DNA of 64,000 bases. Source: Candidatus Oxydemutatoraceae bacterium (GTDB lineage: Bacteria; Pseudomonadota; Gammaproteobacteria; Poriferisulfidales; Oxydemutatoraceae). The position numbers and the translations under genes were made by a program. Shown here piece by piece: positions 6,415-62,821 of this stretch (position 1 is its first letter; each line of letters begins with the position of its first letter). The DNA lies in the NCBI GenBank assembly GCA_965218975.1, contig OZ244717.1, forward strand, positions 160,001 to 224,000. Direction: 5' to 3'. The notes beneath the pieces were generated by a model. It searched no databases. It was given only the letters and a program-made list of their open reading frames with translations, and was not told where the DNA came from.

Positions 6415-6467
6415 GCCTAGGGCTCGGTATACAAAGCTACCGGAAGATAAACTAATACTGTTTTAAT

Positions 6468-6540
<73 letters not shown>

Positions 6541-6763
6541 CCCGACATGGAGATTGCCAGCCTAAACCGATATGCACTCGGCGCATACCATACTACTCCA
6601 AACATAACTATACGCAACACGATAATCTTGCTCATCAAACAGATCATGTTTAAGCGTTCTGTGCATCCGGAATCAACCCCCTTTGCCCGCCTGGTCAAAG
6701 CAAAAACACTACGATAGAGATTTCTTTCTCTTTTAGAAAAAAAGTCCGGCGGGCTCAAGTGCG

Positions 6764-7729
6764 CTACCACCGTAGATGTCTGCCACGTCTGTGCTTTTTT
6801 CCTCGTTTGCGCCACAGTCTAAATCTTTGTTGAATACTCGTGCCGCCACTTTGCCAAAATCTCAACAACCATCGGTCATAACCGGTTGGTTCCCTACCGA
6901 GGTAGACTCGTAACGGCGATCGGCTCGTGCCGCCATCCATAGCATAGGTCTCGACGCGAACCATAGCATATCTCGACGGAACCGCTTTTGCTAAATCGGA
7001 AAAATCAAAAAAATGTTTCACTGCAGGTGCTCGAATATGCCAACGTTTAGCTCGTTCGGCTTTATCGTTATCAAGTAAACACAGTGACACAAGTTTGATA
7101 TCAGGCAAGCTTTCGGTTCCTTGCGGAGCATTGACGAGAAAATTACCCGCATACGCATCACCGTGACGAAGACCGGCAATATGAATCTTTTTGATAAAAG
7201 CGGCCATTTTGCATGTGCATGTACAGTGCAATTGATCGGCATATCGATTATCCTGAGCGAATTGCCCCCTGATGTTCACAATTGTCTCACCACTCTGATA
7301 TTCGTATAAAAAATAATTGTCTGTTATAAACCATTTTTTCCAGCCATGTCGAAAAGTCCAATATGCCAAAGGGCGCGGCACCGGAATTCCCTCACTGTGC
7401 AACAGGCAAGAACCGACAAATGCCCTGCGTGCATATATCCCCAGCAAACAATAAAACCATATTTCAATTCTTCTAGACAAACGATAACGAAAATTAACCG
7501 TGGTTTTTTTCATCGCCAACTTAGTCGGATGATATGGAAGAAAAAAAGCATACAAGGTATTACTAGGCCTGCCATATGACAAAATATGAAATTGACCCCG
7601 CTCAAATTCGCGAAATTCTCCCCGCTTGATCCATTCAATCAATTTATTCTTTTCTTGCAAGCTGGAAACGACCGTATATGTTCCGGGCGAATATTTGCCG
7701 TGTAACAACTTACGTGCACCGGCATTCAT
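6764..7729 (-). CDS. Kdo/WaaP-like (LPS kinase fold) protein, copy 1
   Basis: GIPVPRPLAY, HGDxxxGNFL and LLDND kinase-like motifs. Confidence 0.75.
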   Translation of the reverse strand: MNAGARKLLHGKYSPGTYTVVSSLQEKNKLIEWIKRGEFREFERGQFHILSYGRPSNTLYAFFLPYHPTKLAMKKTTVNFRYRLSRRIEIWFYCLLGIYARRAFVGSCLLHSEGIPVPRPLAYWTFRHGWKKWFITDNYFLYEYQSGETIVNIRGQFAQDNRYADQLHCTCTCKMAAFIKKIHIAGLRHGDAYAGNFLVNAPQGTESLPDIKLVSLCLLDNDKAERAKRWHIRAPAVKHFFDFSDLAKAVPSRYAMVRVETYAMDGGTSRSPLRVYLGREPTGYDRWLLRFWQSGGTSIQQRFRLWRKRGKKHRRGRHLRW

Positions 7730-7779
7730 AGCGTACGCCGGGTCGCATCAAGTCCGCCGCGCTTTTATGCACTGCGCGG

Positions 7780-8712
7780 TCAATGTCTGCCATGTTTACG
7801 CTTCTTTCTTTGTTTGCACCACTTCATAATCCGCCGCTTCAATCTTCGCCGAATATTTATGCCGCCGCCTTGCCAAAACCTTAGCAACCATAGATCATAA
7901 CCGGTTGGCTCTCTGCCGAGGTAGACTCGTAACGGTGAAACAATCGTAGTATATTTCTTCGTATACTTCTTCGGAATCGCTCTCGCCAAGTCGTCAAAAT
8001 CAAAAAAATGTTTCACCGCAGGTACTCGAATATGCCAACGTTTAGCTCGTTCGGCTTTATCGTTATCAAGTAAACACAGCGACGCAAGTTTGATATCAGG
8101 CAAGCTTTCGGTTTCTTGCGGAACGCTGACGAGAAAATTATTGTCACTCGGGTCACCGTGGCGAAGACCGAGAATATGAAGCTGTTTGATAAAAGCAAAC
8201 TTTTTGCAATACAATTGATTGATATATTGATATTGATCATCTTGAGCGGCTCGCCTCCTGATCTCCTCAATTGTCTCACCGTTTTGATATTCGTATAAAA
8301 AATAATTGTCTGTTATAAACCATTTTTTCCAGCCATGCCGAAAAGTCCAATATGCCAAAGGGCGCAGCGCTGAAATTCCCTCATCGTACAACAGGCAAGA
8401 GGCGGTAAATGCCCTGCGCGCAAGTCTCCCTAACAAACAAAGATACCATATCTCAATCCTCCCACGTAAACGGAAACGAGGATTAACTATGTTTCTTTTC
8501 ATTACCAACTTAGCCGGATGATACGGAAGAAAAAAAACATACAAGGCACGGCTATACAGGAACGAAATATTAAATTGGTCTTGCTCAAATTCGCGAAATT
8601 CTCCCCGCTTGATCCATTCAATCAGTTTATTCTTTTCTTGCAAGCCGGAAACGACCGTATATGTTCCGGACGAATATTTACCGCGCAGTAACGGACGCAC
8701 ACTAGCATTCAT
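7780..8712 (-). CDS. Kdo/WaaP-like kinase, copy 2
   Basis: Paralog of copy 1; HGDPSDNNF. Confidence 0.75.
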   Translation of the reverse strand: MNASVRPLLRGKYSSGTYTVVSGLQEKNKLIEWIKRGEFREFEQDQFNISFLYSRALYVFFLPYHPAKLVMKRNIVNPRFRLRGRIEIWYLCLLGRLARRAFTASCLLYDEGISALRPLAYWTFRHGWKKWFITDNYFLYEYQNGETIEEIRRRAAQDDQYQYINQLYCKKFAFIKQLHILGLRHGDPSDNNFLVSVPQETESLPDIKLASLCLLDNDKAERAKRWHIRVPAVKHFFDFDDLARAIPKKYTKKYTTIVSPLRVYLGREPTGYDLWLLRFWQGGGINIRRRLKRRIMKWCKQRKKRKHGRH

Positions 8713-8766
8713 AGCGCACGCCGGGGCGCATTGAAAAAGTCCGACGTGCTTTGATGCACTACGCGG

Positions 8767-9713
8767 CTAATCTCCGCCATGTTTGCGCTTTTTTCTTTGT
8801 TTGTAATACTTCCTAATCTTCCCCCTTAATATTCGCTGAATAGGTATGCCGCGGCTTTGCCAGAATTTCAGTAACCATAGGTCATAACGGGTCGGTTCCC
8901 TACTGAGATAGACTCGCAACAGTGAAACAGCCTTGTCATACCCTGTAACAAATCCTTTTGTTAAGTCTTTGAAATCGAAAAAATATTTCACTGCAGGTAC
9001 TAGAATGTGCCAATATTTGACCCGTTTGGCATAATCGTTATCAATTAAATACATTGATGCAATGTTTATATCAGGAAAACATCCGGTTTGTTGCGGATCG
9101 CTGATGATAAAATTGCCGGTTTTCTGGTCACCGTGGCGGAGACCGGCAAGATGGACCAGTTTAATAAAAGAAAAAATTTTGCAATGCCATTGGTGGATAT
9201 CTTCTTTTCTTCCGTGTTGATTCAATCGCCTTATGAGGCTCTTCAATGTCTCGCCGTGCTGGTATTCGTATAAAAAATAATTGCCTGTTCTAAACCGTTT
9301 TTCCCAGCCATGCCGAAAAAGTCCAATATGCCAAAGGGCGCGGCGTTGAAATTCCCTCATCGTACAACAGGCAAGAGGAGAAAAATACTTTGCGGGCAGG
9401 TTTCCCTGACAAATGGTCATACCATGATCTAATCCTCCTAGGCCTAAACCTCCTAAGAAAATTGGAACTAGGATTAAGCATTTTTCTTTTCATTACCAAC
9501 TTGGTCGGATACGATGGCAGAAAAAAAGCATAAACAATACCATAAGGACGACGTTGTCGTTGTGAAATAATAAATTGGTCTCGCTCAAAATTCCGAAATT
9601 CTCCTCGCTTGATCCATTCAATCAGTTTATCCTTTTCTTGCACGTCGGAAACGATCGTATATGTTCCGGACGAATATTTGCCGCGCAAGTAACGGACGCA
9701 CACTAGCATTCAT
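8767..9713 (-). pseudogene. Kdo/WaaP-like kinase, copy 3, two +1 frameshifts
   Basis: Extra A near 9687 and a 5-A run at 9316-9320 versus 4 A in copy 2; homology spans three frames; HGDQKTGNF. Confidence 0.75.
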
Positions 9714-9768
9714 AGCGCACGCCGGGTCGCCATTGAAAAAGTCCGACGTGCTTTGATGCACTACGCAG

Positions 9769-10701
9769 CTAATCCCTGCCATGTTTGCGCTTCTTTCTTT
9801 GTTTGCACCACTTCATAATCCTCTTCATAATCCTCCGCCTTAATCTTCGCCGAATACGTGTGCCGCCTTGCCAAAATCTCAACAACCATCGGTCATATCC
9901 GGTTGGTTCCCTACCGAGGTAGACTCGTAACGGCGGATCTATAGCATATCTCGACGGAACCGCTTTTGCTAAATCAAGAAAATCAAAAAAATGTTTCACT
10001 GCAGGTACCCGAATATACACACGCCCGAAGCTATCGTTATCAAGTAAACACAGCGACGCAAGTTTCATATCAGGCAAATCTTCGGTTTCTTGCGGAGCGC
10101 TGACGAGAAAATTACCCGCATACGCATTACCGTGACGAAGACCGGCAATATGAAGCTGTTTGATAAAAGTGGCCATTTTGCAATGTAATTGATCAATATA
10201 TTGATATTGGCCATCCCCCCTGATGGCTTGTCCCCTGATGTCCACAATTGCCTCACCGTTCTGATATTCGTATAAAAAATAATTGTCTGTTATAAACCAT
10301 TTCTTCCAGCCATGCCGGAAAGTCCAATATGCCAAAGGGCGCGGCGTTGAAATTCTCGCATCGTGCAACAGGCAAGAGCCGACAAATGCCCTGCGTGCAT
10401 ATATCCCCAGCAAACAACGAAACCATACTTGAATCCTCCTAAGCAAAAGAGAACGAGGATTAACTGTGGCTTTTTTCATTACCAGCTTAGTCGGATGATA
10501 CGGAAGAAAAAAAGCATAAATGGTATTACGAGAACTATACAGGAACGAAATCTTAAATTGGTCTTGCTCAAAATTCCGAAATTCTCCCCGCTGAATCCAT
10601 TCGATTAGTTCATCCTTTCCCTGCAAACCGGAAACAACCGTATATGTTCCGGACGAATACTTGCCGCGCAGTAACGGACGTACACTAGCATTCATGTTCA
10701 T
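9769..10701 (-). CDS. Kdo/WaaP-like kinase, copy 4 (catalytic Asp replaced by Asn)
   Basis: HGNAYAGNF; start overlaps cysQ stop. Confidence 0.75.
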   Translation of the reverse strand: MNMNASVRPLLRGKYSSGTYTVVSGLQGKDELIEWIQRGEFRNFEQDQFKISFLYSSRNTIYAFFLPYHPTKLVMKKATVNPRSLLLRRIQVWFRCLLGIYARRAFVGSCLLHDARISTPRPLAYWTFRHGWKKWFITDNYFLYEYQNGEAIVDIRGQAIRGDGQYQYIDQLHCKMATFIKQLHIAGLRHGNAYAGNFLVSAPQETEDLPDMKLASLCLLDNDSFGRVYIRVPAVKHFFDFLDLAKAVPSRYAIDPPLRVYLGREPTGYDRWLLRFWQGGTRIRRRLRRRIMKRIMKWCKQRKKRKHGRD

Positions 10702-18095: not shown

Positions 18096-19853
18096 TTAGT
18101 AATCGCCGTGTACAATTTCGACTTGCGGCATTCCCCAACAAACATGCCCCATATCTTGCGCCATTTGCCCTAATCCTTCCGTTTCAATATAGTGGCGATA
18201 AGGGTGCGGCGGAAAAATTAATCCTTTGCGATGAATATCAGCATTTACCAAAAGCATCGTACCGCCTACACCGTCCAACTCAACATAATCCGTATCGGGA
18301 AAATGTTTTAGATAATAACGTCCGTAACCGACCGGCGGTTGCAAAATACCGTCAATCAGATATCGTTCCCAATCAAGCGTATCCGCATCTTCACGTAACT
18401 TAAAAGTATTCAAATCAAAAGTATCGCCATTCTCTCCGACACAATGCGGCACAACAATATCTTTACCGGACTGTAAGAGGTGAAGAAATGTATCCTCATG
18501 CCAACTGAGAAGGTCCGCATCAACCCATAATACCCACGCCTCATCGCGCAATGTCCTGCTTAATAATACGTTGCGGCTTTGTGCCAAAATCGACCGCCGC
18601 CGGAACTGTTGGCCGACGGCCCAACGTTGCCCTCGCATACGATAAGCAAAATCTTGTTTATGCAACTCAACGCGCGCATATTTCTTACGCAATTCAGGCA
18701 ATAACTCTTTGAGCAAATCGTAAGAACCGTCATCGCTGTCACTCTCAAGCAAACCGATGGAAATTTTTTTCTCGGGATAATCCGTGCCGGCAAGATTCTG
18801 GAAAAACCTTGGAATGTGCGACATGGCATTTTTAACCGGCGTCAAAATCAATAAATCCGGATAGGCATCGGGACGCTTGACTACAGGCAAAGGTTTCGAA
18901 GTATCCTCATGCATCGCTTTGGTTTCCGCCTTTGTAGCCAAATCAATACCATATTCCGCCGACAAATCACGCAACTTTACCGCATATTGATCGCCGCAAT
19001 AACGATACGAGTGTTGCCGGATAATCTTCTTATAATGTCCGACCCCCCAAGTGTTTTGCCCATGAAAAACGTAAATATAGGCATCCGGTCGGTCACATAA
19101 TGCCGTTCTCGCAGTGCGTACAATTGCATTACACACCACCGTATCCTCGCCTTTTTTCATCGGCGCATAATCGGGAACCAACCGCTTCTCGCAAACCATT
19201 GTGCCCTCTGCCATGCAATAGCCGGAAATATCTAAACGATGCCGCTCAGGAGACCACAAAAGCTGACGATGCAAAAAGCAGACTTCAACTTCCAATGCCC
19301 GAATGACGCCCATTTGCAATGATAATCTGTCGGGGTGGCTCAGATCGTCATCGTCCCATTGCGCAATGTATTCTCCGCTCGCATGGTCTAACGATACATT
19401 GCGCAAGTGGCCTAGCGAATAATTTTTATTCGGTAAACGAATATGCACAATCGATGCATCCGACAAAGAATCCGTCCATTGCTTTAACCGATCGTCAGAA
19501 TCATAATCAATAATAATCAGTTCTTTACTCGGATAACTTTGTCTGCGAAAGCATTCAATTGATTTCTGCGCCAGCGAGAACCGCTTGCGTGTTATCATCA
19601 GGCAAGAAATTTTAGGATGAGACGACTGTTGTAAAATATCGTAAGCAACCGGCAAATCAACCGCAGCATGCGATACACACCGTCCGTGCACTAAACAGCT
19701 TGTCCAAACCTGCGATGCGGATAAAGGAGGCAGGACAAGCGGTGAAGGAATCTTAAAACTCCACCGAAAACCTTTTTCAGGATGAAGTAAGAAATAAAAG
19801 CGCCGTGCCCAACATCCGGACCAATTCCGAATCTGTCGCTCTAGACTATTCAT
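18096..19853 (-). CDS. Two-domain glycosyltransferase (GT2 plus Anp1/GT62-like), copy 1
   Basis: N-part LRN...GEYIAQWDDDD; C-part LTPVKNA, WVLWVDAD, LDGVGG, IETEG resembling Anp1/Mnn9/Van1. Confidence 0.75.
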   Translation of the reverse strand: MNSLERQIRNWSGCWARRFYFLLHPEKGFRWSFKIPSPLVLPPLSASQVWTSCLVHGRCVSHAAVDLPVAYDILQQSSHPKISCLMITRKRFSLAQKSIECFRRQSYPSKELIIIDYDSDDRLKQWTDSLSDASIVHIRLPNKNYSLGHLRNVSLDHASGEYIAQWDDDDLSHPDRLSLQMGVIRALEVEVCFLHRQLLWSPERHRLDISGYCMAEGTMVCEKRLVPDYAPMKKGEDTVVCNAIVRTARTALCDRPDAYIYVFHGQNTWGVGHYKKIIRQHSYRYCGDQYAVKLRDLSAEYGIDLATKAETKAMHEDTSKPLPVVKRPDAYPDLLILTPVKNAMSHIPRFFQNLAGTDYPEKKISIGLLESDSDDGSYDLLKELLPELRKKYARVELHKQDFAYRMRGQRWAVGQQFRRRSILAQSRNVLLSRTLRDEAWVLWVDADLLSWHEDTFLHLLQSGKDIVVPHCVGENGDTFDLNTFKLREDADTLDWERYLIDGILQPPVGYGRYYLKHFPDTDYVELDGVGGTMLLVNADIHRKGLIFPPHPYRHYIETEGLGQMAQDMGHVCWGMPQVEIVHGDY

Positions 19854-20292: not shown

Positions 20293-22062
20293 TTAGTAAT
20301 CGCCGTGTACAATTTCGACTTGCGGCATTCCCCAACAAACATGCCCCATATCTTGCGCCATTTGCCCTAATCCTTCCGTTTCAATATAGTGGCGATAAGG
20401 GTGCGGCGGAAAAATTAATCCTTTGCGATGAATATCAGCATTTACCAAAAGCATCGTACCGCCTACACCGTCCAACTCAACATAATCCGTATCGGGAAAA
20501 TGTTTTAGATAATAACGTCCGTAACCGACCGGCGGTTGCAAAATACCGTCAATCAGATATCGTTCCCAATCAAGCGTATCCGCATCTTCACGTAACTTAA
20601 AAGTATTCAAATCAAAAGTATCGCCATTCTCTCCGACACAATGCGGCACAACAATATCTTTACCGGACTGTAAGAGGTGAAGAAATGTATCCTCATGCCA
20701 ACTGAGAAGGTCCGCATCAACCCATAATACCCACGCCTCATCGCGCAATGTCCTGCTTAATAATACGTTGCGGCTTTGTGCCAAAATCGACCGCCGCCGG
20801 AACTGTTGGCCGACGGCCCAACGTTGCCCTCGCATACGATAAGCAAAATCTTGTTTATGCAACTCAACGCGCGCATATTTCTTACGCAATTCAGGCAATA
20901 ACTCTTTGAGCAAATCGTAAGAACCGTCATCGCTGTCACTCTCAAGCAAACCGATGGAAATTTTTTTCTCGGGATAATCCGTGCCGGCAAGATTCTGGAA
21001 AAACCTTGGAATGTGCGGCATGGCATTTTTAACCGGCGTCAAAATCAATAAATCCGGATAGGCATCGGGACGCTTGACTACAGGCAAAGGTTTCGAAGTA
21101 TCCTCATGCATCGCTTTGGTTTCCGCCTTTGTAGCCAAATCAATACCATATTCCGCCGACAAATCACGCAACTTTACCGCATATTGATCACCGCAATAAC
21201 GATACGAGTGTTGCCGGATAATCTTCTTATAATGTCCGACTCCCCAAGTGTTTTGCCCATGAAAAACGTAAATATAGGCATCCGGTCGGTCACATAATGC
21301 CGTTCTCGCAGTGCGTACAATCGTATCGCACACCGCCGTATCCTCGCCTTTTTTCATCGGCGCATAATCGGGAACCAACCGCTTCTCGCAAACCATTGTG
21401 TTCTCTGCCATACAATAGCCGGAAATATCTAAACAATGCCGTTCGGGAAACCACAAAAGCTGACGATGCAAAAAGCAGACTTCAACTTCCAATGCCCGAA
21501 TGACGCCCATTTGCAATGATAATCTGTCGGGGTGGCTCAGATCGTCATCGTCCCATTGCGCAATGTATTCTCCGCTCGCATGGTCTAACGATACATTGCG
21601 CAAGTGGCCTAGCGAATGATTTTTATTCGGTAAACGAATATGCACAATCGATGCATCCGACAAAGAATCCGTCCATTGCTTTAACTGATCATCAGAATCA
21701 TCGTCAATAATAATCAGTTCTTTACTCGAATAACTTTGTCTGCGAAAGCATTCAATTGATTTCTGCACCAGCGAGAACCTCTTGCGCGTTATCATCAGGC
21801 AGGAAATTTTGGGATGAGACGACTGTCGCAAAATATCGTAAGCAACCGGCAAATCAACCGCAGCATGCGATACACACCGTCCGTGCACTAAGCAACTTGT
21901 CCAAACCTGCGGCGCGGGTAAGGGGCGCGGGGCAAGCGGTGAAGGAATCTTAAAACTCCAATAGCGTAAATATTGCCAGCTTTCTCCGGGACGAAGTAAA
22001 ATATAAAAGCGCCGTCCCCAACGCTTAATCCAATTCCGGGTACATTGTTTTAATTTACTCAT
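20293..22062 (-). CDS. Two-domain glycosyltransferase (GT2 plus Anp1/GT62-like), copy 2
   Basis: Near-identical to copy 1 at offset 2197; start overlaps GT32 stop. Confidence 0.75.
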   Translation of the reverse strand: MSKLKQCTRNWIKRWGRRFYILLRPGESWQYLRYWSFKIPSPLAPRPLPAPQVWTSCLVHGRCVSHAAVDLPVAYDILRQSSHPKISCLMITRKRFSLVQKSIECFRRQSYSSKELIIIDDDSDDQLKQWTDSLSDASIVHIRLPNKNHSLGHLRNVSLDHASGEYIAQWDDDDLSHPDRLSLQMGVIRALEVEVCFLHRQLLWFPERHCLDISGYCMAENTMVCEKRLVPDYAPMKKGEDTAVCDTIVRTARTALCDRPDAYIYVFHGQNTWGVGHYKKIIRQHSYRYCGDQYAVKLRDLSAEYGIDLATKAETKAMHEDTSKPLPVVKRPDAYPDLLILTPVKNAMPHIPRFFQNLAGTDYPEKKISIGLLESDSDDGSYDLLKELLPELRKKYARVELHKQDFAYRMRGQRWAVGQQFRRRSILAQSRNVLLSRTLRDEAWVLWVDADLLSWHEDTFLHLLQSGKDIVVPHCVGENGDTFDLNTFKLREDADTLDWERYLIDGILQPPVGYGRYYLKHFPDTDYVELDGVGGTMLLVNADIHRKGLIFPPHPYRHYIETEGLGQMAQDMGHVCWGMPQVEIVHGDY

Positions 22063-25252: not shown

Positions 25253-26367
25253 TGTACGATGTTACCCTAAATGGGATTCTTGAAGGGCTTCGGAGGAAGC
25301 GTTCGGCAGTAACATTCGGATCGGCGCTTTCTGTCCGTTGCCGGCATGAGGACGGTGCAGGGTGAGATGCGCCCGGAAAACCGATCGGTTTTCAGCGGCG
25401 AACGACCCGACAAGGACGTCGGGGCTGGCGCTCATTGACAGAACCCAGTCTCGTCATGGACGAGCAGGGTGAGACGCGCCCGGAAAACCGATCGGTTTTC
25501 AGCGGCGAACGACCCGACAAGGACGTCGGGGCTGGCGTTCATTGACAGAACCAAGTCTCGTCATGGACGACAGACACTTTGCTGAGCATTCACCAACAAA
25601 CTACAAAACGGCTTCATAACCGGTCATTGAATGCTTCCGTATCGGCGAATAGCAGGTTTTCTGCATGATCGATACAATCTTCTTGAACGGTGCGGTTGAA
25701 GCGCTCGATGTGCGCGTTCATTTTTGGACACTTGGGATAGGTCAGCCACTGCTCAATCGCGGGTGATTCCCGGATGAGCCGGGCAAACCTGTCCTTGAAA
25801 CTCACTACCACCATCTGTCAGGGTGAGACGCGCTCGGAAAACCGATCGGTTTTCAGCGGCGAACGACCCGACAAGGACCGTCAGGGCTGGCGCTTATTCG
25901 CAGAACCAAGTCTCGTCACGGACGAGCAGGGTGAGACGCGCCCGGAAAACCGAACGGTTTTCAGCGGCGAACGACCCGACAAGGATGTCGGGGCTGACGC
26001 TCATTGACAGAACCAAGTCTCGTCATGGACGACAGGCACTTTGCCGGGTTGCGGCCAGACCCGCCGACGCCTCTTGCGCAGCGCTTTGCTGCGGTCATGC
26101 AAGGCGCTGAGCCCAGTGCGGCAATAACGTCGGCGCCAGCGGTACAAAGTGCTGCGACCGACCTTAAATGCGTTTAGGGTTACAATCCTCCCAAAATAAC
26201 AGGGCATCGTGTTTCTGTTGAGCCGTTGTGTTCATGAGCCTCTATTTTTGAAGCAAAATTGGCTCATATAGAAACCTTTGATGCGGTGGTGGCCGATGTG
26301 CTGATATTGCATATCGGTCACCTTTTCGAGTTAAGCCGTGAGTCCCATATGTATCTGGTACTATACA
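25253..26367 (-). mobile_element. IS481-like relic A with four nested ~100-bp units
   Basis: TGTA...TACA imperfect terminal repeats; transposase fragments (HTH RSTLYRW; TDGGSEF; NAHIERFNRT); no target duplication seen. Confidence 0.8.
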
Positions 26368-36281: not shown

Positions 36282-36358
36282 GGGCCTGTAGCTCAGTCGG
36301 TCAGAGCAGGGGACTCATAATCCTTTGGTCGCAGGTTCGAATCCTGCCGGGCCCACCA
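36282..36358 (+). tRNA. tRNA with CAT anticodon, probably tRNA-Ile2
   Basis: GGGCCTG/CGGGCCC acceptor stem plus ACCA, CTCATAA loop; position after rpoD is typical of Ile2. Confidence 0.9.
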
Positions 36359-39349: not shown

Positions 39350-39883
39350 TGTACAGTGCCAGATACATGTGGGAATCACCCGTGATTGAGCAGTGGCTGA
39401 CCTATCCCAAGTGTCCAAAAATGAACGCGCACATTGAGCGCTTCAACCGTACCGTCCAAGAAGATTGTATCGATCACGCGGAAGACCTGCTATTCACTGA
39501 TACGGAAGCATTTGATGACCAGCTATGAAACCGTTTTGTGTTTGTTGCCGGATTTTCGGCGGATTGTGCCGGATTGTCGGCAAAGTGCCTGTCATCCATG
39601 ACGCGACTGGGTTCTGTCAACAAGCTCCAGCCCCGACGTCCTTGTCGGGTCGTTCACCGCTGAAAACCAATTGGTTTTCCGGGCGCGTCTCACCCATGAC
39701 GAGACTTGGTTCTGTCAATGAGCACCAGCCCCGACATCCCTGTTGGGTCGTTCACCGCTGAAAACCGATCGGTTTTCCGGGCGCGTCTCACCCGGCAACG
39801 GACAGAAAGCACCGACCCGAATGTTACTGCCGAACGCTTCCCCAGAAGCTCTTCAAGAATCCCATTTAGGGTGGCATCGTACA
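39350..39883 (+). mobile_element. IS481-like relic B (opposite orientation) with two nested units
   Basis: TGTACAGTGCCAGATACAT ... GGGTGGCATCGTACA ends; NAHIERFNRT fragment. Confidence 0.8.
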
Positions 39884-43340: not shown

Positions 43341-44113
43341 TGTACGATGCCACCCTAAATGGGATTTTTGAAGGGCTTCGAGGGAAGCGTTCGGCAGTAA
43401 CATTCGGATCGGTGCTTTCTGTCCGTTACCGGCATGAGGACGGTGCAGGGTGAGACACGCCTGGAAAACCGACTGGTTTTCAGCGGCGAACGACCCGACA
43501 AGGACGTCGGGGCTGGGGCTCATTGACAGCACGAAGTTTCGTCATGAACGACATGCACTTTGCTAATAATCCAGCACAATCCGCCGACAACCCTGCACCA
43601 AACACAAAACGGGTGAGACGTGCCCGGAAAACCAATTGGTTTTCAGCGGCGAACGACCCAACAAGGACGTCGGGGCTGGGGTTCATTGACAGAACCAAGT
43701 CTCGTCATGGGTGAGACGCGCCCGGAAAACTACACAGTTTTCAGCGGGTTTTTCAGCGGCGAACGACCCGACAGGGACGTCGGGGCTGGGGCTTGTTGAC
43801 AGAACTAAGTCGCGTCATGGACGACAGGCACTTTGCCGACAACCCCGCACAATCCGCCGACAACCTCGCACAATCCGCCGACAACCCACCAACAAACACA
43901 GAACGGGGGAGACGCGCCCGGAAAACCAATTGGTTTTCAGCGGCGAACGACCCGACAAGGACGTCGGGGCTGGGGTTCATTGACAGAACCAAGTCTCGTC
44001 ATGGACGACAGGCACTTTGCCGACAACCCACCAACAAACACAGAACGCTTTCATCACCGGCCATTGAATGCTTCCATATCGGTGAATAGCAGGTTTTCTG
44101 CATAATCAATATA
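43341..44113 (-). mobile_element. IS481-like relic C, one end only, four nested units
   Basis: TGTACGATGCCACC end; units at 43450, 43613, 43711, 43907; right boundary approximate. Confidence 0.78.
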
Positions 44114-44770: not shown

Positions 44771-45934
44771 TCAGCAATTCTTAAAGTTCTTTTTGACGCA
44801 TTCGCGGGCAAGCGCTTGCGCTTTAGAGATATCGGCAGGGGCCATTTGTTCTTCCAATTCATCTCTTAACTTTGCTCCTTCTTCACTCCCGTTTTCGGAA
44901 GCGATGCTTGCCCACATATAAGCATAGACATTATCCTTTGTTAATCCCTTGCCAAGAGCATACGCCACGCCCAGTTTATATTGCGTATCTGCATTTCCCT
45001 GTTCGGCAGCGCGTCTGAACCACTCCACTGCTTTTTGGTCATCCTGAGGAACGCCATGTCCCTCGGCATACGCCACGCCTAGATTGTATTGCGCATCTGC
45101 ATTTCCCTGTTCGGCAGCGCGTCTGAACCACTCCGTTGCTTTCTGATCATCCTGAGAAACACCGCGTCCCGCGGCATACGCCACGCCTAGGTAAAATTGC
45201 GCATCTGCATTTCCCTGTTCGGCAGCGCGTCTGAACCACTCCACTGCTTTTTGGTCATCCTGAGGAACGCCGCGTCCCGCGGCATACGCCACGCCTAGAT
45301 TATATTGCGTATCTGCATTTCCCTGTTCAGCAGCGCGTCTGAACCACTCCACTGCTTTTTGGTCATCCTGAGGAACGCCATGTCCCTCGGCATACGCTAC
45401 GCCTAGATTGTATTGCGCATCTGCATTTCCCTGTTCGGCAGCAAGTCTGAACCACTCCGTTGCCTTCTGATCATCCTGAGAAATACCGCGCCCCGCGGCA
45501 TACGCCACGCCCAGATTAGATTGTGCACTTGCATGCCCCTGTTCGGCAGCATGTCTGAACCACTCCACTGCTTTTTGGTCATCCTGAGGAACACCGCGTC
45601 CCGTGGCATACGCCACGCCTAGATTAGATTGCGCATTTGCATTTCCCTGCTCGGCAGCGCGTCTGTACCGTTTCACTGATTGCTGATCGTTCTGGGAAAT
45701 ATCGAGTCTACTCTCGTCCTTGGGTTTGTCCTTGGGTTTGTCCTCGGATTTTATTGAGAAGCTTTTTGTTGAGATGAAGGTTTCTATTTTTATGGACTTG
45801 GCCTTTATTGAGAGTGAGAAGGAGGACGGTCTTGCTTCTCCAGAATCAGTAGATCGGGATATCCATCGCTTCAATAATGTAGGCAATAAAACAGAAATGA
45901 AGGACAAAAAAGCTTTCTTTATTATATTGTACAT
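44771..45934 (-). CDS. Sel1-like repeat protein (7 repeats)
   Basis: 36-aa repeats AQxNLGVAYAxGxGVxQDDQKAxEWFRxAAEQG; native start probably ATG 45934, ORF stays open into IS relic D. Confidence 0.88.
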   Translation of the reverse strand: MYNIIKKAFLSFISVLLPTLLKRWISRSTDSGEARPSSFSLSIKAKSIKIETFISTKSFSIKSEDKPKDKPKDESRLDISQNDQQSVKRYRRAAEQGNANAQSNLGVAYATGRGVPQDDQKAVEWFRHAAEQGHASAQSNLGVAYAAGRGISQDDQKATEWFRLAAEQGNADAQYNLGVAYAEGHGVPQDDQKAVEWFRRAAEQGNADTQYNLGVAYAAGRGVPQDDQKAVEWFRRAAEQGNADAQFYLGVAYAAGRGVSQDDQKATEWFRRAAEQGNADAQYNLGVAYAEGHGVPQDDQKAVEWFRRAAEQGNADTQYKLGVAYALGKGLTKDNVYAYMWASIASENGSEEGAKLRDELEEQMAPADISKAQALARECVKKNFKNC

Positions 45935-45952
45935 GTTCAGATTCACACTGGA

Positions 45953-46816
45953 TGTACAATACCACCCCAGTGGGATTCTTGCAGAGCTTTGTGGGAAGCA
46001 TTCGGCAACAACATTCGGATCGGTGCTTGCTGTCCGTTGCCGGGTGAGACGCGCCTGGAAAACCGATCGGTTTTCAGCGGCGAACGACCCGACAAAGACG
46101 TCGGGGCTGGCGCTCATTGACAGAACCAGGTCTCGTCATGGACGACAGGCACTTTGCTGAGCATTTACCAACAAACACAAAACGGTTTCATCAGCTCAAA
46201 AACTTTACTGCTGCCGAAATTCTGCCCGGCGCAGGCGTTTGATTTCACGCTGAATCGGTTGTGGCCAGATCCGCCGACATCTCTTACGCGGCGCCGGCCG
46301 CGGGCATCGAGGTGCTGCAGGATACGGCGCATCTTATCGGGGGCTGCGGCGATGATGCGCCCGATAGTCGAGACGCTGGGGGTGGTCAGGCCGTGGCGCT
46401 CGCACCACGGCTCAAGCAACTTCTGCACCGGCTGTTTACCTAAGTTCGGATACCGCTCGCGCAGACGGCGGATTGCTTGCACCAAACCGGATGGGCACCG
46501 CGCCTGCCGTCGGCGATGCGGTGCGGTCGAACGCGGCGCCAGTGCCGCTACGTTGTGTCCGGCTTCCCTCAAGGTCTGCCGCCACCGATACAAGGTACGG
46601 CGACTGACTTTGAATGCATCGCAGGCAGCGGCTATGCCATGGTTTTCCTGGAAGGTGAGAATTTTGAGTCGTTGTTTTGCATCGTAAGTCATAGTATCCC
46701 AACTATGCCCGATTTTAGCGACCCGGTAAAACCCCCGGATTCGATAGCCTATGTGTTGGATTTGCAAGGCTGCTTCTCCTGTCGGCAGGAGTGCCAAATG
46801 TTTCTGAGCTTATGCA
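45953..46816 (-). mobile_element. IS481-like relic D, chimera of two related IS, one nested unit
   Basis: Family-1 end and fragment to ~46293, then a divergent transposase N-terminus (SRRTLYRW, PSVSTIGR) ending in a TGCATAAGCTCAGAAACAT-type end. Confidence 0.75.
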
Positions 46817-50297: not shown

Positions 50298-51469
50298 TGT
50301 ACGATGCCACCCTAAAAGGGATTCTTGAAGGGCTTCGGGGAAAGCGTTCGGCAGTAACATTTGAATCGGTGCTTTCTGTCCGTTGCCGACATGAGGGCGG
50401 TGCAGGGTGAGACGCGCCCGGAAAACCGATCGGTTTTCAACGGCGAACGACCCGACAAGGACGTCGGGGCTGGCGCTCATTGACAGAACCAAATCTCGTC
50501 ATGGACGACAGGCACTTTGCTGAGCATTCACCAACAAACACAAAACGGCTTCATAACCGATCATTGAATGCTTCCGTATCGGTAAATAGCAAGTTTTCCG
50601 CATGATCAATACAATCCTCCTGGACGATACGATTGAAGCGCTCGATGTGCGCGTTCATTTTTGGACACTTGGGATAGGTCAGCCACTGCTCAATCACGGG
50701 TGATTCCCGGATGAGCCGGGCAAACTATCCTTGAAACTCACTCCCGCCGTCCGTCAGGGTGAGACGCGCTCGGAAAACCGATCGGTTTTCAGCGGCTAAC
50801 GACCCGACAAGGACGTCGGGGCTGGCGCTCATTGACAGAACCAAGTCTCGTCATGGACGACAAGCACTTTGCCAGGTTGCGGCAGTACCGACACTATACA
50901 CGCCAGGGTCAGGCGCAGGAATGCGGCAGCACTACGGCTGTTACAGCGGTTGGTTGCCACTGCTATTGCCATTCGGGTATAGACATTGATGCCCGTTAAG
51001 ACGTAGCGGCGCACTCCGTGCTGATAACACACAGTATCCAGGGCGATGCAATGCCCCGGATACTGTGCTTTGAAGTGTTTCGGCTTGCGTGCCCTGCAAC
51101 GGCGCTTGAACAGTCGTTTTGTTTGTCCTTTGGCATTCAGCCGCTGCGGAATACAGCGCATTTTATCCGGCGCATCTGCGGTCAGGCGCGCAATTGTGCG
51201 GACACTTGGGCAGAGCAGCTGGTGGCGATGGCAAAACGGTTTCATCAGCTCAAAGACTTTATTGCTGCCGAGATTCGCCAAAGCTGTCAAAATTCTGCCC
51301 GGCGTAGGCGTTTGATTTCATGCTGAATCGCCTGCGGCCAGATCCGCCGACGCCTCTTGCGCGGCGCTTTGCCGCGGTCATACAAGGCGCTGAGTCCAGT
51401 GCGGCGATAACGTCTGCGCCAGCGGTACAAAGTGCTGCGACCGACCTTGAATGCGTTCGGGGGTTACAA
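50298..51469 (-). mobile_element. IS481-like relic E with two nested units
   Basis: TGTACGATGCCACC end; fragments with PGHCIALDTV, TDGGSEF, ERFNR and HTH; second end missing. Confidence 0.8.
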
Positions 51470-61228: not shown

Positions 61229-62821
61229 TGTACGATGCCACCCTAGATGCCACCCTAAATGGGATTTTTGAAGGGCTTCGGGGGAAGCGTTCGGCAGTAA
61301 CATTCGGATCGGTGCTTTCTGTCCGTTGCCGGCATGAGGACGGTGCAGGGTGAGACGCGCTCGGAAAACCGATCGGTTTTCAGCGGCGAACGACCCGACA
61401 AGGACGTCGGGGCTGGTGCTCATTGACAGAACCAAGTCTCGTCATGGGTGAGACGCGCCCGGAAAACCAATTGGTTTTCAGCGGTGAACGACCCGACAAG
61501 GACGTCGGGGCTGGCGCTTGTTGACAGAACCCAGTCGCGTCATGGATGACAGGCACTTTGCCGACAATCCGGCACAATCCGCCGACAACACGGCAACAAA
61601 CACAAAACGGTTTCATAACTGGTCATTGAATGCTTCCGTATCGGCGAATAGCAGGTCTTCCGCATGATTGATACAATATCTTCTTGGACGGTGCGGTTGA
61701 AGCGCTTGATGTGCGCGTTCATTTTTGGACACTTGGGATAGGTCAGCCACTGCTCAATCACGGGTGATTCCCGGATGAGCCGGGCAAACTGTCCTTGAAA
61801 CTCACTACCGCCGTCCGTCAGGGTGAGACGCGCCCGGAAAACCGATCGGTTTTCAGCGGCGAACGACCCGACAAGGATGTCGGGGCTGAGGCTTGTTGAC
61901 AGAACCCAGTCGCGTCATGGGTGAGACGCGCCCGGAAAACCAATTGGTTTTCAGCGGTGAACGACCCGACAAGGATGTCGGGGCTGGGGCTTGTTGACAG
62001 AACCCAGTCGCGTCATGGATGACAGGCACTTTGCCGACAATCCGGCACAATCCGCCGACAACACGGCAACAAACACAAAACGGTTTCATCAGCTCAAAGA
62101 TTTTACTGCTGCCGAGATTCGCCAAAGCTGCCGAAATTCTGCCCGGCGTAGGGTGAGACGCGCTCGGAAAACCAATTGGTTTTCAGCGGTGAACGACCCG
62201 ACAAGGATGTCGGGGCTGAGGCTTGTTGACAGAACCCAGTCGCGTCATGGATGACAGGCACTTTGCCGACAATCCGGCACAATCCGCCGACAACACGGCA
62301 ACAAACACAAAACGGTTTCATCAGCTCAAAGATTTTACTGCTGCCGAGATTCGCCAAAGCTGCCGAAATTCTGCCCGGCGTAGGGTGAGACGCGCCCGGA
62401 AAACCAATTGGTTTTCAGCGGTGAACGACCCGACAAGGACGTCGGGGCTGGAGCTTGTTGACAGAACCCAGTCGCGTCATGGACGACAGGCACTTTGCCG
62501 ACAATCCGGCACAATCCGCCGACGCCTCTTGCGCGGCGCTTTGCCGCGGTCATGCAAGGCGCTGAGTCCAGTGCGGCGATAACGTCGGCGCCAGCGGTAC
62601 AAAGTACTGCGACCAACCTTGAATGCGTTTAGGGTTACAATCCTCCCAAAATAACAGGGTATCGTGTTTCTGTTGAGCCGTTGTGTTCATAATAGCCTCT
62701 ATTTTTGAAGCAAAATGGGCTCATATAGAAACCTTTGATGCGGTGGCCGATGTGCTGATATTGCATATCAGTCACCTTTTCGAGTCGTGCCGTGAATCCC
62801 ATATGTATCTGGCACTATACA
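61229..62821 (-). mobile_element. IS481-like relic F with six nested units
   Basis: Both ends present (TGTACGATGCC ... GGCACTATACA); fragmented transposase. Confidence 0.82.
61921..62524. repeat. 232-bp tandem repeat, about 2.6 copies
   Basis: Starts at 61921, 62153, 62385; each full copy is unit + tail + transposase fragment. Confidence 0.9.

Follow-up and report, generated by a model that had tools for sequence, protein, structure and literature searches.

The window analysed here is a 64,000-nt stretch of a contig from a Candidatus Oxydemutatoraceae bacterium. It contains a hairpin-rich unit that is repeated in short arrays, next to fragments of IS481-family transposase genes. The features of the focal locus, and the other places in the window where the unit occurs, are as follows.

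25253 to 25361, plus strand: IS-derived "head" that abuts the first unit and consists of the IS end and the transposase 3' end (..LHRPH..) in reverse complement
25362 to 25468, plus strand: focal unit of 107 nt, first of a two-unit array that ends at about 25570
25364 to 25400, plus strand: junction helix Pa (5' side about 25364 to 25374, 3' side about 25395 to 25400), which encloses H1
25376 to 25393, plus strand: hairpin H1, the 18-bp palindrome, with a 7-bp stem and a 4-nt loop of GATC or, in the other subtype, AATT
25406 to 25423, plus strand: hairpin H2, with a CCCGAC/GTCGGG stem and the loop AAGGAC (C-ANGGAY-G motif)
25450 to 25464, plus strand: 3' hairpin Pf, CTCGTC ATG GACGAG, or C-ATGGAC-G as a hexaloop
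25617 to 25796, minus strand: IS481 transposase fragment (profile positions 201 to 259), between two unit arrays
25823 to 26032, plus strand: two more units of the focal locus
26052 to 26171, minus strand: IS481 transposase fragment (profile positions 22 to 61)
39592 to 39791, minus strand: two units with a 98-nt period
43450 to 44008, plus strand: four units (43450 to 43551, two in 43613 to 43824, and 43909 to 44008), the first with a GACT centre
46044 to 46145, plus strand: solo unit adjoining an IS481 fragment (46345 to 46674, minus strand)
50407 to 50860, plus strand: two units (50407 to 50508 and 50759 to 50860) with IS481-derived sequence between them
61350 to 62486, plus strand: six units found with the palindrome pattern and model R1, as G-then-A dimers (61350 to 61549 and 61823 to 62022) followed by 232-nt higher-order repeat units (62153 to 62254 and 62385 to 62486)

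A sequence-only reading of this DNA had described a palindrome with a GATC or AATT centre, a GACT intermediate in the 43450 copy, and a second hairpin made of CCCGAC, a 6-nt loop and GTCGGG. All of these are seen. The palindrome pattern has 18 matches in the window, and 0.00 were expected from 100 shuffles. Nine cores have GATC at the centre, seven AATT, one GAAC and one GACT (43464 to 43481). The second hairpin is H2. The second array unit (25459 to 25585) scores 63.1 bits with a covariance model from other genomes. In the whole genome (2.08 Mb), nhmmer found 326 units, 164 on the plus strand and 162 on the minus strand, spread over about 96 loci. At about 102 nt each, they amount to about 1.6% of the DNA. 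Exact-arm palindrome cores number 274 genome-wide, with GATC in 140, AATT in 83 and other centres in 51.

The unit and its IS481 carrier

The genome has 118 fragments of IS481-family transposase (family assigned with NCBIfam NF033577), none of them intact, and these fragments carry the units at fixed places. Relative to the nearest fragment, 243 units are antisense and 8 are sense; for the other 75, no fragment lies within 400 nt. The tandem arrays have periods of 98 and 107 nt. The upstream flanks of 199 arrays fall into classes of 69, 38, 28, 20 and 11, and a single downstream flank is common to 177 of the 199.

We found empty and filled IS sites side by side, and the transposase sequence is uninterrupted in the empty copies. 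The unit stands in for 22 to about 40 nt of the transposase gene, at several fixed sites. The empty-site form is also visible in contigs from four DNA runs, which break at the repeat and are uninformative on expression and array length. Of the runs on record as RNA, none contains the locus. Unique contigs of public runs halt at position 25280 and restart at 26339. The unit is foreign to its IS481 carrier; uninterrupted IS copies exist at the same sites and relatives of the unit occur with no IS481 nearby.

Homologues in other Gammaproteobacteria

A 24-nt pattern from H2 matched four loci in three named Pseudomonadales assemblies, and their alignment shows a common architecture. By BLAST, the element has at least 86, at least 41 and at least 45 matches in these three genomes. 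Covariance model R1 was made from 58 copies from the same three genomes only, and no copy from the present genome entered it. R1 recovered 14 units in the window at 36.8 to 71.4 bits, 13 of them at 59.2 bits or more, with model positions 1 to 139 covered. On the whole genome it scored 79 places, at up to 78.5 bits. R1 also has matches in 33 of the 151 gammaproteobacterial families sampled (32 of 150 when genome G333 is left out). BLAST of the unit against 40 relatives gave no match, and the covariance model later found the element in 2 of these 40. The exact 23-mer of H1 (palindrome plus flank) had no match in 185,579 species genomes.

R1 comprises helices Pa, Pb, Pc (H1), Pd (H2) and Pf. The units here have Pa, H1, H2 and Pf, and Pb is deleted in all of them; it is mostly absent in 26 distant members too (18 to 22 gaps of 26). 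H2 is the most conserved part of the family. H1 corresponds to the family's variable-sequence hairpin Pc, whose sequence is free between genomes while its pairing is kept. The 58-copy set has 18 double-changed pairs, compared with 10.3 +/- 1.2 in shuffles (none of 500 reached 18), and 128 double-changed cells, compared with 42.9 in shuffles and 9 to 23 in slid controls. In an alignment of 26 elements from 18 other genomes, fitted to R1, double changes are seen in all but 3 of 29 pairs (26 of 29) and in 154 cells, against 44.9 in shuffles. The homologue of Pa has all five pairs double-changed in other genomes. The pairs of highest mutual information in the homologous elements are helix pairs. 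A candidate helix Pe (columns 101 to 103 with 111 to 113 of alignment A4) was dropped at 59.4% paired.

By sequence and architecture, the unit is not specific to this genome: it belongs to a structured element that is widespread in Gammaproteobacteria, of which it is a shortened form particular to this lineage. We infer that both hairpins were inherited with the element and that selection has kept them in the family. That the identity, the homology and the IS-borne amplification hold jointly, leaving aside CsrA binding, we consider probable.

The known element that most invites comparison is the TwoAYGGAY motif, Rfam RF01731 (Weinberg et al. 2010, PMC2864571). It has been extended in a preprint (bioRxiv 10.64898/2026.09.22.753630) that notes a mobile-element-like expansion. 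As far as the accessible parts of these sources go, both have two hairpins with (A)NGGAY loops, both are multicopy in Pseudomonadota in very uneven numbers, and both occur in tandem or doublet arrangements with other repeats flanking. The R1-type elements of G042 share long basal-stem arms with near-threshold RF01731 elements of G043, and the first TwoAYGGAY hairpin in those relatives has about the same sequence as H2. In contrast to TwoAYGGAY, the units lack a basal stem, which relatives L050 and L047 have. About 30 nt separate their two GGA hairpins, which follow a junction with H1. The H2 loop of the units is AAGGAY, and the units form tandem arrays of 98- and 107-nt period within IS481 remnants. 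Rfam gave nothing at gathering score at the units in the window and nothing at an E value of 1 or less on six unit loci. The best score in the genome with the Rfam RF01731 model is 21.1 bits against a gathering score of 43, and all six weak matches lie on unit arrays. On the sequence comparison, the design, the sequence of one hairpin and the basal stem in some relatives tie the element to TwoAYGGAY. The intergenic repeats BRE (of Betaproteobacteria), BOX, ERIC and BIME are similar in size (about 90 to 130 nt), hairpin content, frequent tandem arrangement and variable copy number. However, their sequences are unrelated, and the accessible part of the source (PMC3110155) reports none that lies within a transposase gene or serves as a tRNA leader.

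Folding and variation among the copies in this genome

We computed the minimum-energy fold of each full copy (n = 241). Hairpin H1 is present in 220 to 222 of these individual folds, H2 in 179 to 205, and the Pa extension pairs (9 to 13 with 34 to 39) in 93 to 118. RNAalifold gave poor consensus folds, both for the within-genome copies and for the mixed alignment A3, and a hand-drawn structure checked by pair counts was used in place of its consensus. The wider nesting proposed earlier, with GCGC arms and an outer stem around the two hairpins, was not confirmed. At unit positions 10 and 68, which belong to the GCGC arms, 135 distinct rows have G-C in 49, G-U in 12 and no pair in 74. The outer stem forms in just 16 of the 241 folds, and its 5-bp pairing excludes Pf. 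The letters show that the 3' variants GTCTC and CGCGTC can each pair with a part of the 5' GAGACGCG. None of the five pairs of helix P0, which corresponds to this outer stem, is double-changed; the helix is pairable and uninformative.

Within the genome, the apparent compensatory change is essentially that of a single pair. Pair 22-25, the site of the GATC/AATT difference, is G-C in 86 rows, A-U in 40 and G-U in 5, and it provides 40 of the 46 double-changed cells. This pair cannot form in the hairpin because it would close a 2-nt loop. With it removed, 7 double-changed cells are left, compared with 3.6 in shuffles (7 was reached by 30 of 500) and 1 to 8 in slid controls. Mutual information between columns 22 and 25 is 0.66, compared with 0.63 for the adjacent unpaired columns 72 and 73, and the association decays with distance.

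The analysis confirms two linked subtypes and recombinants between them. Haplotype (G..C, CA, T) occurs 121 times and (A..T, TG, G) 54 times, and five recombinant classes number 24, 17, 15, 15 and 13. Neighbouring units with a 98-nt period follow the order G-then-A in 30 cases and A-then-G in 4, and the 107-nt arrays contain the G type only. Variability at stem sites is not significantly lower than at the remaining sites (p = 0.13), and rare stem changes are balanced (26 G>A, 24 C>T). The dead transposase DNA alongside varies as much as the units do and is no less conserved. The "compensating" changes within this genome appear mostly to mark two lineages of copies.

The sequence-only reading had seen in these changes the mark of selection on a folded RNA or ssDNA. 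Such selection on the fold is true of the family, where helix covariation is strong, but it is not carried by the variation among the copies here, which shows linkage, array position and variability of the kind just described.

Possible function, alternative readings and origin

Two loops of the element present GGA. The H2 motif CANGGAYG is kept in 44 of the 58 Pseudomonadales copies and in 292 of the 326 units here, and the same motif in Pf is kept in 50 of 58 and 202 of 326, respectively; the Pf loop is cut at 98-nt junctions in 83 units. In the 26 elements from 18 other genomes, GGA lies within the loop of H2 in 22 and of Pf in 24. Units carry 2.59 GGA each on the plus strand versus 0.04 on the minus strand. 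ATGGAC or ATGGAT forms the Pf loop in 182 of the 326 units. In H2, 279 units have AAGGAC or AAGGAT, with a purine at the second place, so that this loop is AAGGAY and not AYGGAY. The CsrA SELEX consensus has GGA in a hairpin loop, according to the accessible part of the source (PMC4347634). The C-ANGGAY-G of both loops agrees with this consensus and also resembles the TwoAYGGAY motif. H2 fits 10 of the 12 consensus positions, and a csrA gene is present in the genome. A Csr/Rsm sponge has been proposed for AYGGAY loops in the accessible text of the preprint (bioRxiv 10.64898/2026.09.22.753630). The sponge RNAs CsrB/CsrC and RsmX/Y/Z likewise hold many GGA motifs in hairpin loops, and unit arrays would be multivalent in the same way. 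However, those RNAs come from one to three genes, whereas the units are dispersed in hundreds with no sequence or model match to them. The CsrB and RsmY models had no match in the genome and RsmZ scored 14.5 bits at a place elsewhere, which is weak evidence since the models are lineage-bound. Neither a promoter nor a terminator is seen at the focal unit locus: between 25100 and 26450 there are no sigma-70-like promoter sites, and the two terminator-like sites are on the minus strand and within the shuffle range.

The family often adjoins tRNA genes. At the best-hit loci of 35 other genomes, the element lies 2 to 15 nt upstream of a co-oriented tRNA gene in 14, and a tRNA lies within 100 nt in 22. 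This upstream position is absent in all 20 loci of the three high-copy genomes. In the present genome, which has 45 tRNA genes, no unit lies within 150 nt of one, and the nearest is at 156 nt. ARAGORN and Rfam call only tRNA-Phe (6467 to 6543) and tRNA-Met (36282 to 36358) in the window, neither at a unit. The accessible part of the TwoAYGGAY preprint (bioRxiv 10.64898/2026.09.22.753630) does not mention tRNA genes. For the family, these sequence features make it about an even call that the plus-strand RNA binds CsrA/Rsm through the two GGA loops and is made elsewhere as a tRNA-precursor leader. For the copies in this genome, binding of their plus-strand RNA to CsrA/Rsm through the same two loops is doubtful. 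A fuller scenario would have them as an escaped class-wide tRNA-leader RNA, amplified by IS481 to more than 300 copies and now serving as a host CsrA sponge in read-through transcripts antisense to the dead IS; we think this quite unlikely.

Several other readings were weighed against that of a captured family member. If the unit were a genome-specific minisatellite that arose from IS481's own sequence, it would be plain junk with accidental hairpins. The constant location of the units within dead IS481 copies, their lack of better conservation than the flanks, and the empty BLAST search of 40 relatives and H1 23-mer search would suit this origin. However, elements of the same architecture occur in the 33 families that R1 reached, 38 context loci (110 kb) from genomes with homologous elements contain no IS481 fragment, and empty IS copies have intact transposase sequence at the place that the unit takes up in filled ones. 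An origin in IS481 sequence is largely refuted, and we hold the minisatellite reading as a whole to be very unlikely. The palindrome could also be a double-stranded site of a dimeric protein, which would preserve symmetry in the change from GATC to AATT; it is perfect, and GATC or AATT is found in 223 of 274 cores versus 8 with the single-step forms GATT or AATC. Against this, the homologous hairpin elsewhere has an unrelated sequence with pairing alone kept, and columns 22 and 25 are associated no more strongly than adjacent unpaired columns. The change represents about one event, because it comes by descent with a subtype whose place in the arrays is fixed. One templated mutation within the palindrome, by quasipalindrome correction, could produce such a symmetric double change. 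The symmetric protein site suggested from the letters is unsupported, since H1 differs freely between genomes, and we judge it highly improbable.

An alternative that concerns the whole family is that it acts at the DNA level, as ssDNA hairpins recognised by a copying transposase or recombinase in the manner of REP/REPIN or MITE elements, with the GGA loops as contacts of that enzyme and not of CsrA. High and very uneven copy numbers, tandem arrays and overlapping inverted doublets (for example, in G305) would fit, as would the mobile-element-like expansion noted for TwoAYGGAY in the accessible preprint text. G-U and A-C mismatches in the helices (28 versus 17, p = 0.135) are not significantly skewed and give no decision between RNA and DNA; H2 alone leans to the plus strand (10 versus 1). 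Against a DNA-level family, the purine-purine covariation of A.G to G.A at the base of H2 (35 versus 17 of 58) has no other-strand counterpart. Unlike REP/REPIN systems with their RAYT, this genome has no match to Y1/RAYT (PF01797), nor do the three high-copy genomes G041 to G043; the control was positive in 6 of 14 known genomes. Unlike a MITE, the unit has inverted ends of just GAGAC/GTCTC (5 nt), and the flanking DNA showed no duplication; the CAGG or ATGG shared at unit junctions is part of the repeat. The precise co-oriented site before tRNA genes fits co-transcription better than insertion. We regard a DNA-level family as unlikely. A tRNA-like or tRNA-derived unit draws on the proximity to tRNA genes and on relative G008, in which a copy of the first 22 or so nt of the adjacent tRNA-Lys precedes each array unit, so that the unit's GGGTGAG comes after a D-arm-like stretch. 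However, neither ARAGORN nor the Rfam tRNA model calls a tRNA at any unit, which leaves the earlier minus-strand tRNA likeness unsupported. A cloverleaf is without covariation support, and the minus strand carries no conserved feature. We give this reading hardly any weight.

For a captured structured element, the following history may be proposed. The element would have been captured by an IS481 before the IS multiplied, and the units would then have spread with it, perhaps aided in trans by a transposase since lost. This order is read from shared junctions only, which gene conversion could mimic. Short GG/CAGG homologies may then have allowed local expansion through slippage or unequal exchange. 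GATC/AATT and the linked variants would be two recent sub-lineages with fixed array places, shuffled by exchange between copies. The copies here would have lost the tRNA-leader setting and may be inert.

A genome repeat thereby gains a traceable origin in a single structured element carried by a transposon. If the sponge reading is true, a regulatory RNA has been spread by a transposon, with hundreds of GGA hairpins in a small-genome symbiont that has no detectable CsrB, RsmY or RsmZ gene. The R1 family reaches about a fifth of the sampled gammaproteobacterial families and was missed by Rfam 15, its two loops agree with the CsrA consensus, and in many genomes it occupies the place of a tRNA-precursor leader. 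Together, these points would make the function of TwoAYGGAY-like elements directly testable.

The repeat unit and its IS481 carrier in the source genome

The repeat unit carries an 18-bp palindrome hairpin with GATC or AATT at its centre (H1), a CCCGAC/GTCGGG hairpin (H2), and a 3' hairpin (Pf).

Window 25362-25468, plus strand: repeat unit of 107 nt, starting with GGGTGAG; a second copy follows directly.

The palindrome pattern had 18 matches in the window versus 0.00 expected. The source genome (G000) is a single contig of 2.081 Mb with 47.7% G+C, and it contains 274 palindrome cores with exact arms (140 GATC, 83 AATT, and 51 other). An iterated nhmmer search found 326 units genome-wide (plus strand, 164; minus strand, 162), forming 199 arrays at 96 loci; 241 are full length without indels. 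Among the arrays are 89 solo G units (GATC-type centre), 27 G-A dimers, 19 solo A units (AATT-type centre), and 17 G-G dimers. Subtypes occupy set positions within the arrays: with a period of 98 nt, G preceded A 30 times and A preceded G 4 times, and arrays with the 107-nt period consist of the G subtype only. Three other repeat features lie in the window.

Window 6764-10701, minus strand: tandem row of four paralogous genes, each about 990 nt long (65 to 93% repeat identity; 321, 310, 217+139, and 310 aa, the third being split); the first has only a weak match, to a Kdo-kinase-like family (E = 2.9e-4).
Window 18096-18395 and 20293-20592: 300-nt stretch, 100% identical, shared by the 3' ends of two neighbouring glycosyltransferase-like genes (585 and 589 aa, minus strand).
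Window 44771-46117, minus strand: 448-aa ORF on a 108-nt (36-aa) tandem repeat (seven copies, 68 to 93% identity), matching TPR/Sel1-like repeat proteins (MerG, AlgK, MotX, and ExoR models); its 5' end is overlain by a unit.

The units sit between fragments of IS481-family transposase genes. There are 118 such fragments in the genome, none above the family cut-off, and their boundaries recur (profile positions 22-61, 109-183, 190-260, and 206-283). Relative to the nearest fragment, 243 units are antisense and 8 are sense; the other 75 lie more than 400 nt from any fragment. Upstream flank classes comprise 69, 38, 28, 20, and 11 of the 199 arrays, and a single downstream flank is common to 177. 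IS copies with unbroken sequence at the same sites show that the unit cassette replaces transposase sequence: 22 nt close to the 3' end at one site, and about 40 nt preceding the LTDGGSEF motif at another. The empty-site form is also present in public short-read contigs, which end at window 25280 and restart at 26339. The approximately 39 nt after each array appear, by eye against another IS481 lineage in the same genome, to be native transposase codons. No Y1/RAYT transposase was found in the source genome.

The two hairpins proposed in the sequence-only reading proved robust: in the minimum-energy folds of 241 individual units, H1 (7-bp stem and 4-nt loop) formed 220 to 222 times and H2 179 to 205 times. 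The nested arms said to enclose them were not supported. Only 16 of the 241 folds had an outer stem and about 11 had a third hairpin, and one pair of the GCGC arm was unpaired in 74 of 135 rows. For covariation, we aligned 150 units, 19 from the window and 131 taken at random from 173 other fetched units, which came out of 301 near-full units. The proposed nested structure gave 46 double-changed cells, but 40 came from the single pair 22-25. This pair lies at the palindrome centre and would close a 2-nt loop, so that in any hairpin it belongs to the loop. Compensatory change within the genome was not confirmed. Its mutual information (0.66) is matched by the neighbouring unpaired columns 72-73 (0.63), and columns are less tightly linked the farther apart they lie. 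The minimum-energy structure had 7 double-changed cells versus 3.6 in shuffles (30/500 reached 7) and 1 to 8 in slid controls.

Median variability was 0.015 at stem sites and 0.020 at other sites, a difference that was not significant (P = 0.13), and rare stem changes were balanced (26 G>A and 24 C>T). The units are as diverse (mean 0.063, median 0.017) as their IS-derived flanks (means 0.033 to 0.090 in subsets with an exact motif, 58/69, 23/28, 14/20, and 63/177). There is one real stem flip: pair 20-27 is G:C, the state of the Pseudomonadales copies described below, in four copies at one locus and C:G in all others. The two linked subtypes noticed earlier were recovered as two main haplotypes, of 121 and 54 units, with recombinants also present. 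The within-genome variation of the units reflects two copy lineages.

Homologous elements and covariation across the family

BLAST with the unit gave no match in 40 relatives, and the exact H1 23-mer was absent from 185,579 species genomes. A 24-nt H2 pattern occurred at 4 loci, which belong to 3 named assemblies: an uncultured Pseudohongiella and two Pseudomonadales MAGs. Alignment revealed a homologous element, about 123 nt long, with the same 5' GGGTGAG; it has an extra hairpin (Pb), an H1 of different sequence, and a 3' hairpin. The H2 core is identical over at least 28 nt. These three genomes hold at least 86, at least 41, and at least 45 copies at 75 to 95% identity, some of them in tandem. 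No RAYT was found in the three genomes, and their elements had no Rfam match at an E value of ≤1.

We built a covariance model, R1, solely from 58 full Pseudomonadales copies, without the source genome's units. R1 matched 14 window units at 36.8 to 71.4 bits; the matches span the whole model apart from Pb, which is deleted. It was positive in 2 of 40 relatives, both from the window's own family; in 14 of 151 genomes from the order to which the Pseudohongiella assembly belongs, a count that includes the assembly itself; and in 33 of 151 genomes of a class sample with one genome per family (32/150 without a genome flagged unpublished). No IS481 fragments were present at 38 context loci from other genomes.

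On the 58 copies we drew a junction helix around H1 (Pa), Pb, the H1 and H2 equivalents (Pc and Pd), and Pf, and 93.7% of the helix cells were paired. Eighteen pairs were double-changed, versus 10.3 ± 1.2 in shuffles. The double-changed cells numbered 128, versus 42.9 in shuffles (0/500 reached 128) and 9 to 23 in slid controls. The top mutual-information pairs were those of the drawn helices, together with a purine pair at the H2 base that switches from A.G to G.A. In the pair counts, another candidate helix, Pe, was unsupported and an alternative outer helix had no double change. Among 26 elements from 18 of the genomes that R1 matched, 95.0% of cells were paired (shuffles, 64.6%) and double changes occurred in 26 of the 29 pairs, in an alignment fitted to R1, which favours this result. 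The sequence-only observation was confirmed in part. Its inference of selection on a fold is right for the wider element family; it cannot be drawn from variation within the source genome, where two copy lineages account for the differences.

Conserved GGA loops and tRNA gene setting

The H1 sequence varies freely between genomes, whereas H2 and Pf both keep the loop C-ANGGAY-G. It is kept in 44/58 (H2) and 50/58 (Pf) Pseudomonadales copies and in 292/326 and 202/326 units of the source genome; Pf is lost at 98-nt junctions in 83 units. The 26 distant members have GGA in the loop of H2 in 22 cases and of Pf in 24. Units contain on average 2.59 GGA on the plus strand versus 0.04 on the minus strand. 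The CsrA SELEX consensus (PMC4347634) has ACA and GGA as its invariant parts, with the GGA placed in a hairpin loop. By sequence, the H2 and Pf loops fit this consensus. CsrA is encoded in 4/4 genomes checked, the source genome among them. CsrB, RsmY, and RsmZ were undetected there by Rfam models, which are lineage-bound, so that this is only a hint.

The same loops recall the TwoAYGGAY motif. A 2026 preprint (bioRxiv 10.64898/2026.09.22.753630) reports TwoAYGGAY in multiple copies in Pseudomonadota, with a long basal stem, additional hairpins, structural variants, and repeats on its flanks; it also restates the proposal that the loops are bound by Csr/Rsm proteins. With the Rfam TwoAYGGAY model the units scored no more than 21.1 bits against a threshold of 43, and the model's weak matches in the source genome fall on unit arrays. 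In a Pseudomonadales genome, G043, near-threshold matches lie at other places.

L108:1495-1640 and L112 (loci of G043): compact TwoAYGGAY-like elements, 41.0 and 40.6 bits versus the Rfam threshold of 43.

The first hairpin of these compact elements is almost the H2 sequence. Furthermore, the long basal-stem arms of the near-threshold elements also enclose some R1-type elements, one of which folds at -135.6 kcal/mol (z = -7.4).

Two arrangements of neighbouring elements were also seen. In genome G305, R1-type elements form at least five pairs on opposite strands with 3' ends overlapping by about 20 nt, reminiscent of doublets reported for TwoAYGGAY. Many Pseudomonadales copies are followed by a second conserved module, a hairpin (GCAGAATCC...GATTCTGC) and then a REP-like palindrome, which echoes the downstream REP arrays of Pseudomonas fluorescens SBW25 in the part of the preprint available.

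G305 C1:1675337-1675471 (plus) and 1675450-1675586 (minus): example of an inverted doublet, found with R1.
Flanks in L038, L039, L041, L044, L045, and L048: second downstream module.

We called tRNA genes with ARAGORN at the best-hit locus in each of 35 other genomes (own family 2/2, order sample 11/13, and class sample 22/32). In 14 of the 35, the element ends 2 to 15 nt before a co-oriented tRNA gene.

L093, L097, L099, L115, L118, L122, L125, L127-L130, L132, L136, and L137: elements 2 to 15 nt upstream of a co-oriented tRNA gene.

Several of these sit within tRNA operons, e.g., Arg-His-[element]-Lys in L129. Eight more genomes have a tRNA within 100 nt in another arrangement, and 13 have none within 100 nt. 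There was no tRNA setting at 20/20 loci of the three high-copy Pseudomonadales genomes, and no unit of the source genome is less than 156 nt from any of its 45 tRNA genes. In G008, from the window's own family, three tandem elements directly precede tRNA-Lys (L115:1374-1862). Each array repeat carries a copy of the first approximately 22 nt of the adjacent tRNA-Lys; thus, the element's GGGTGAG comes after a D-arm-like stretch. The tRNA-adjoining position implies that the element would be transcribed in those genomes. In the accessible text of the TwoAYGGAY preprint (bioRxiv 10.64898/2026.09.22.753630), we saw no reference to tRNA genes.

The unit is best filed as a TwoAYGGAY-like, Csr/Rsm-type element, putative in function in the source genome. 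It has probably lost its basal stem and tRNA setting, and was probably captured by an IS481 and amplified along with it.
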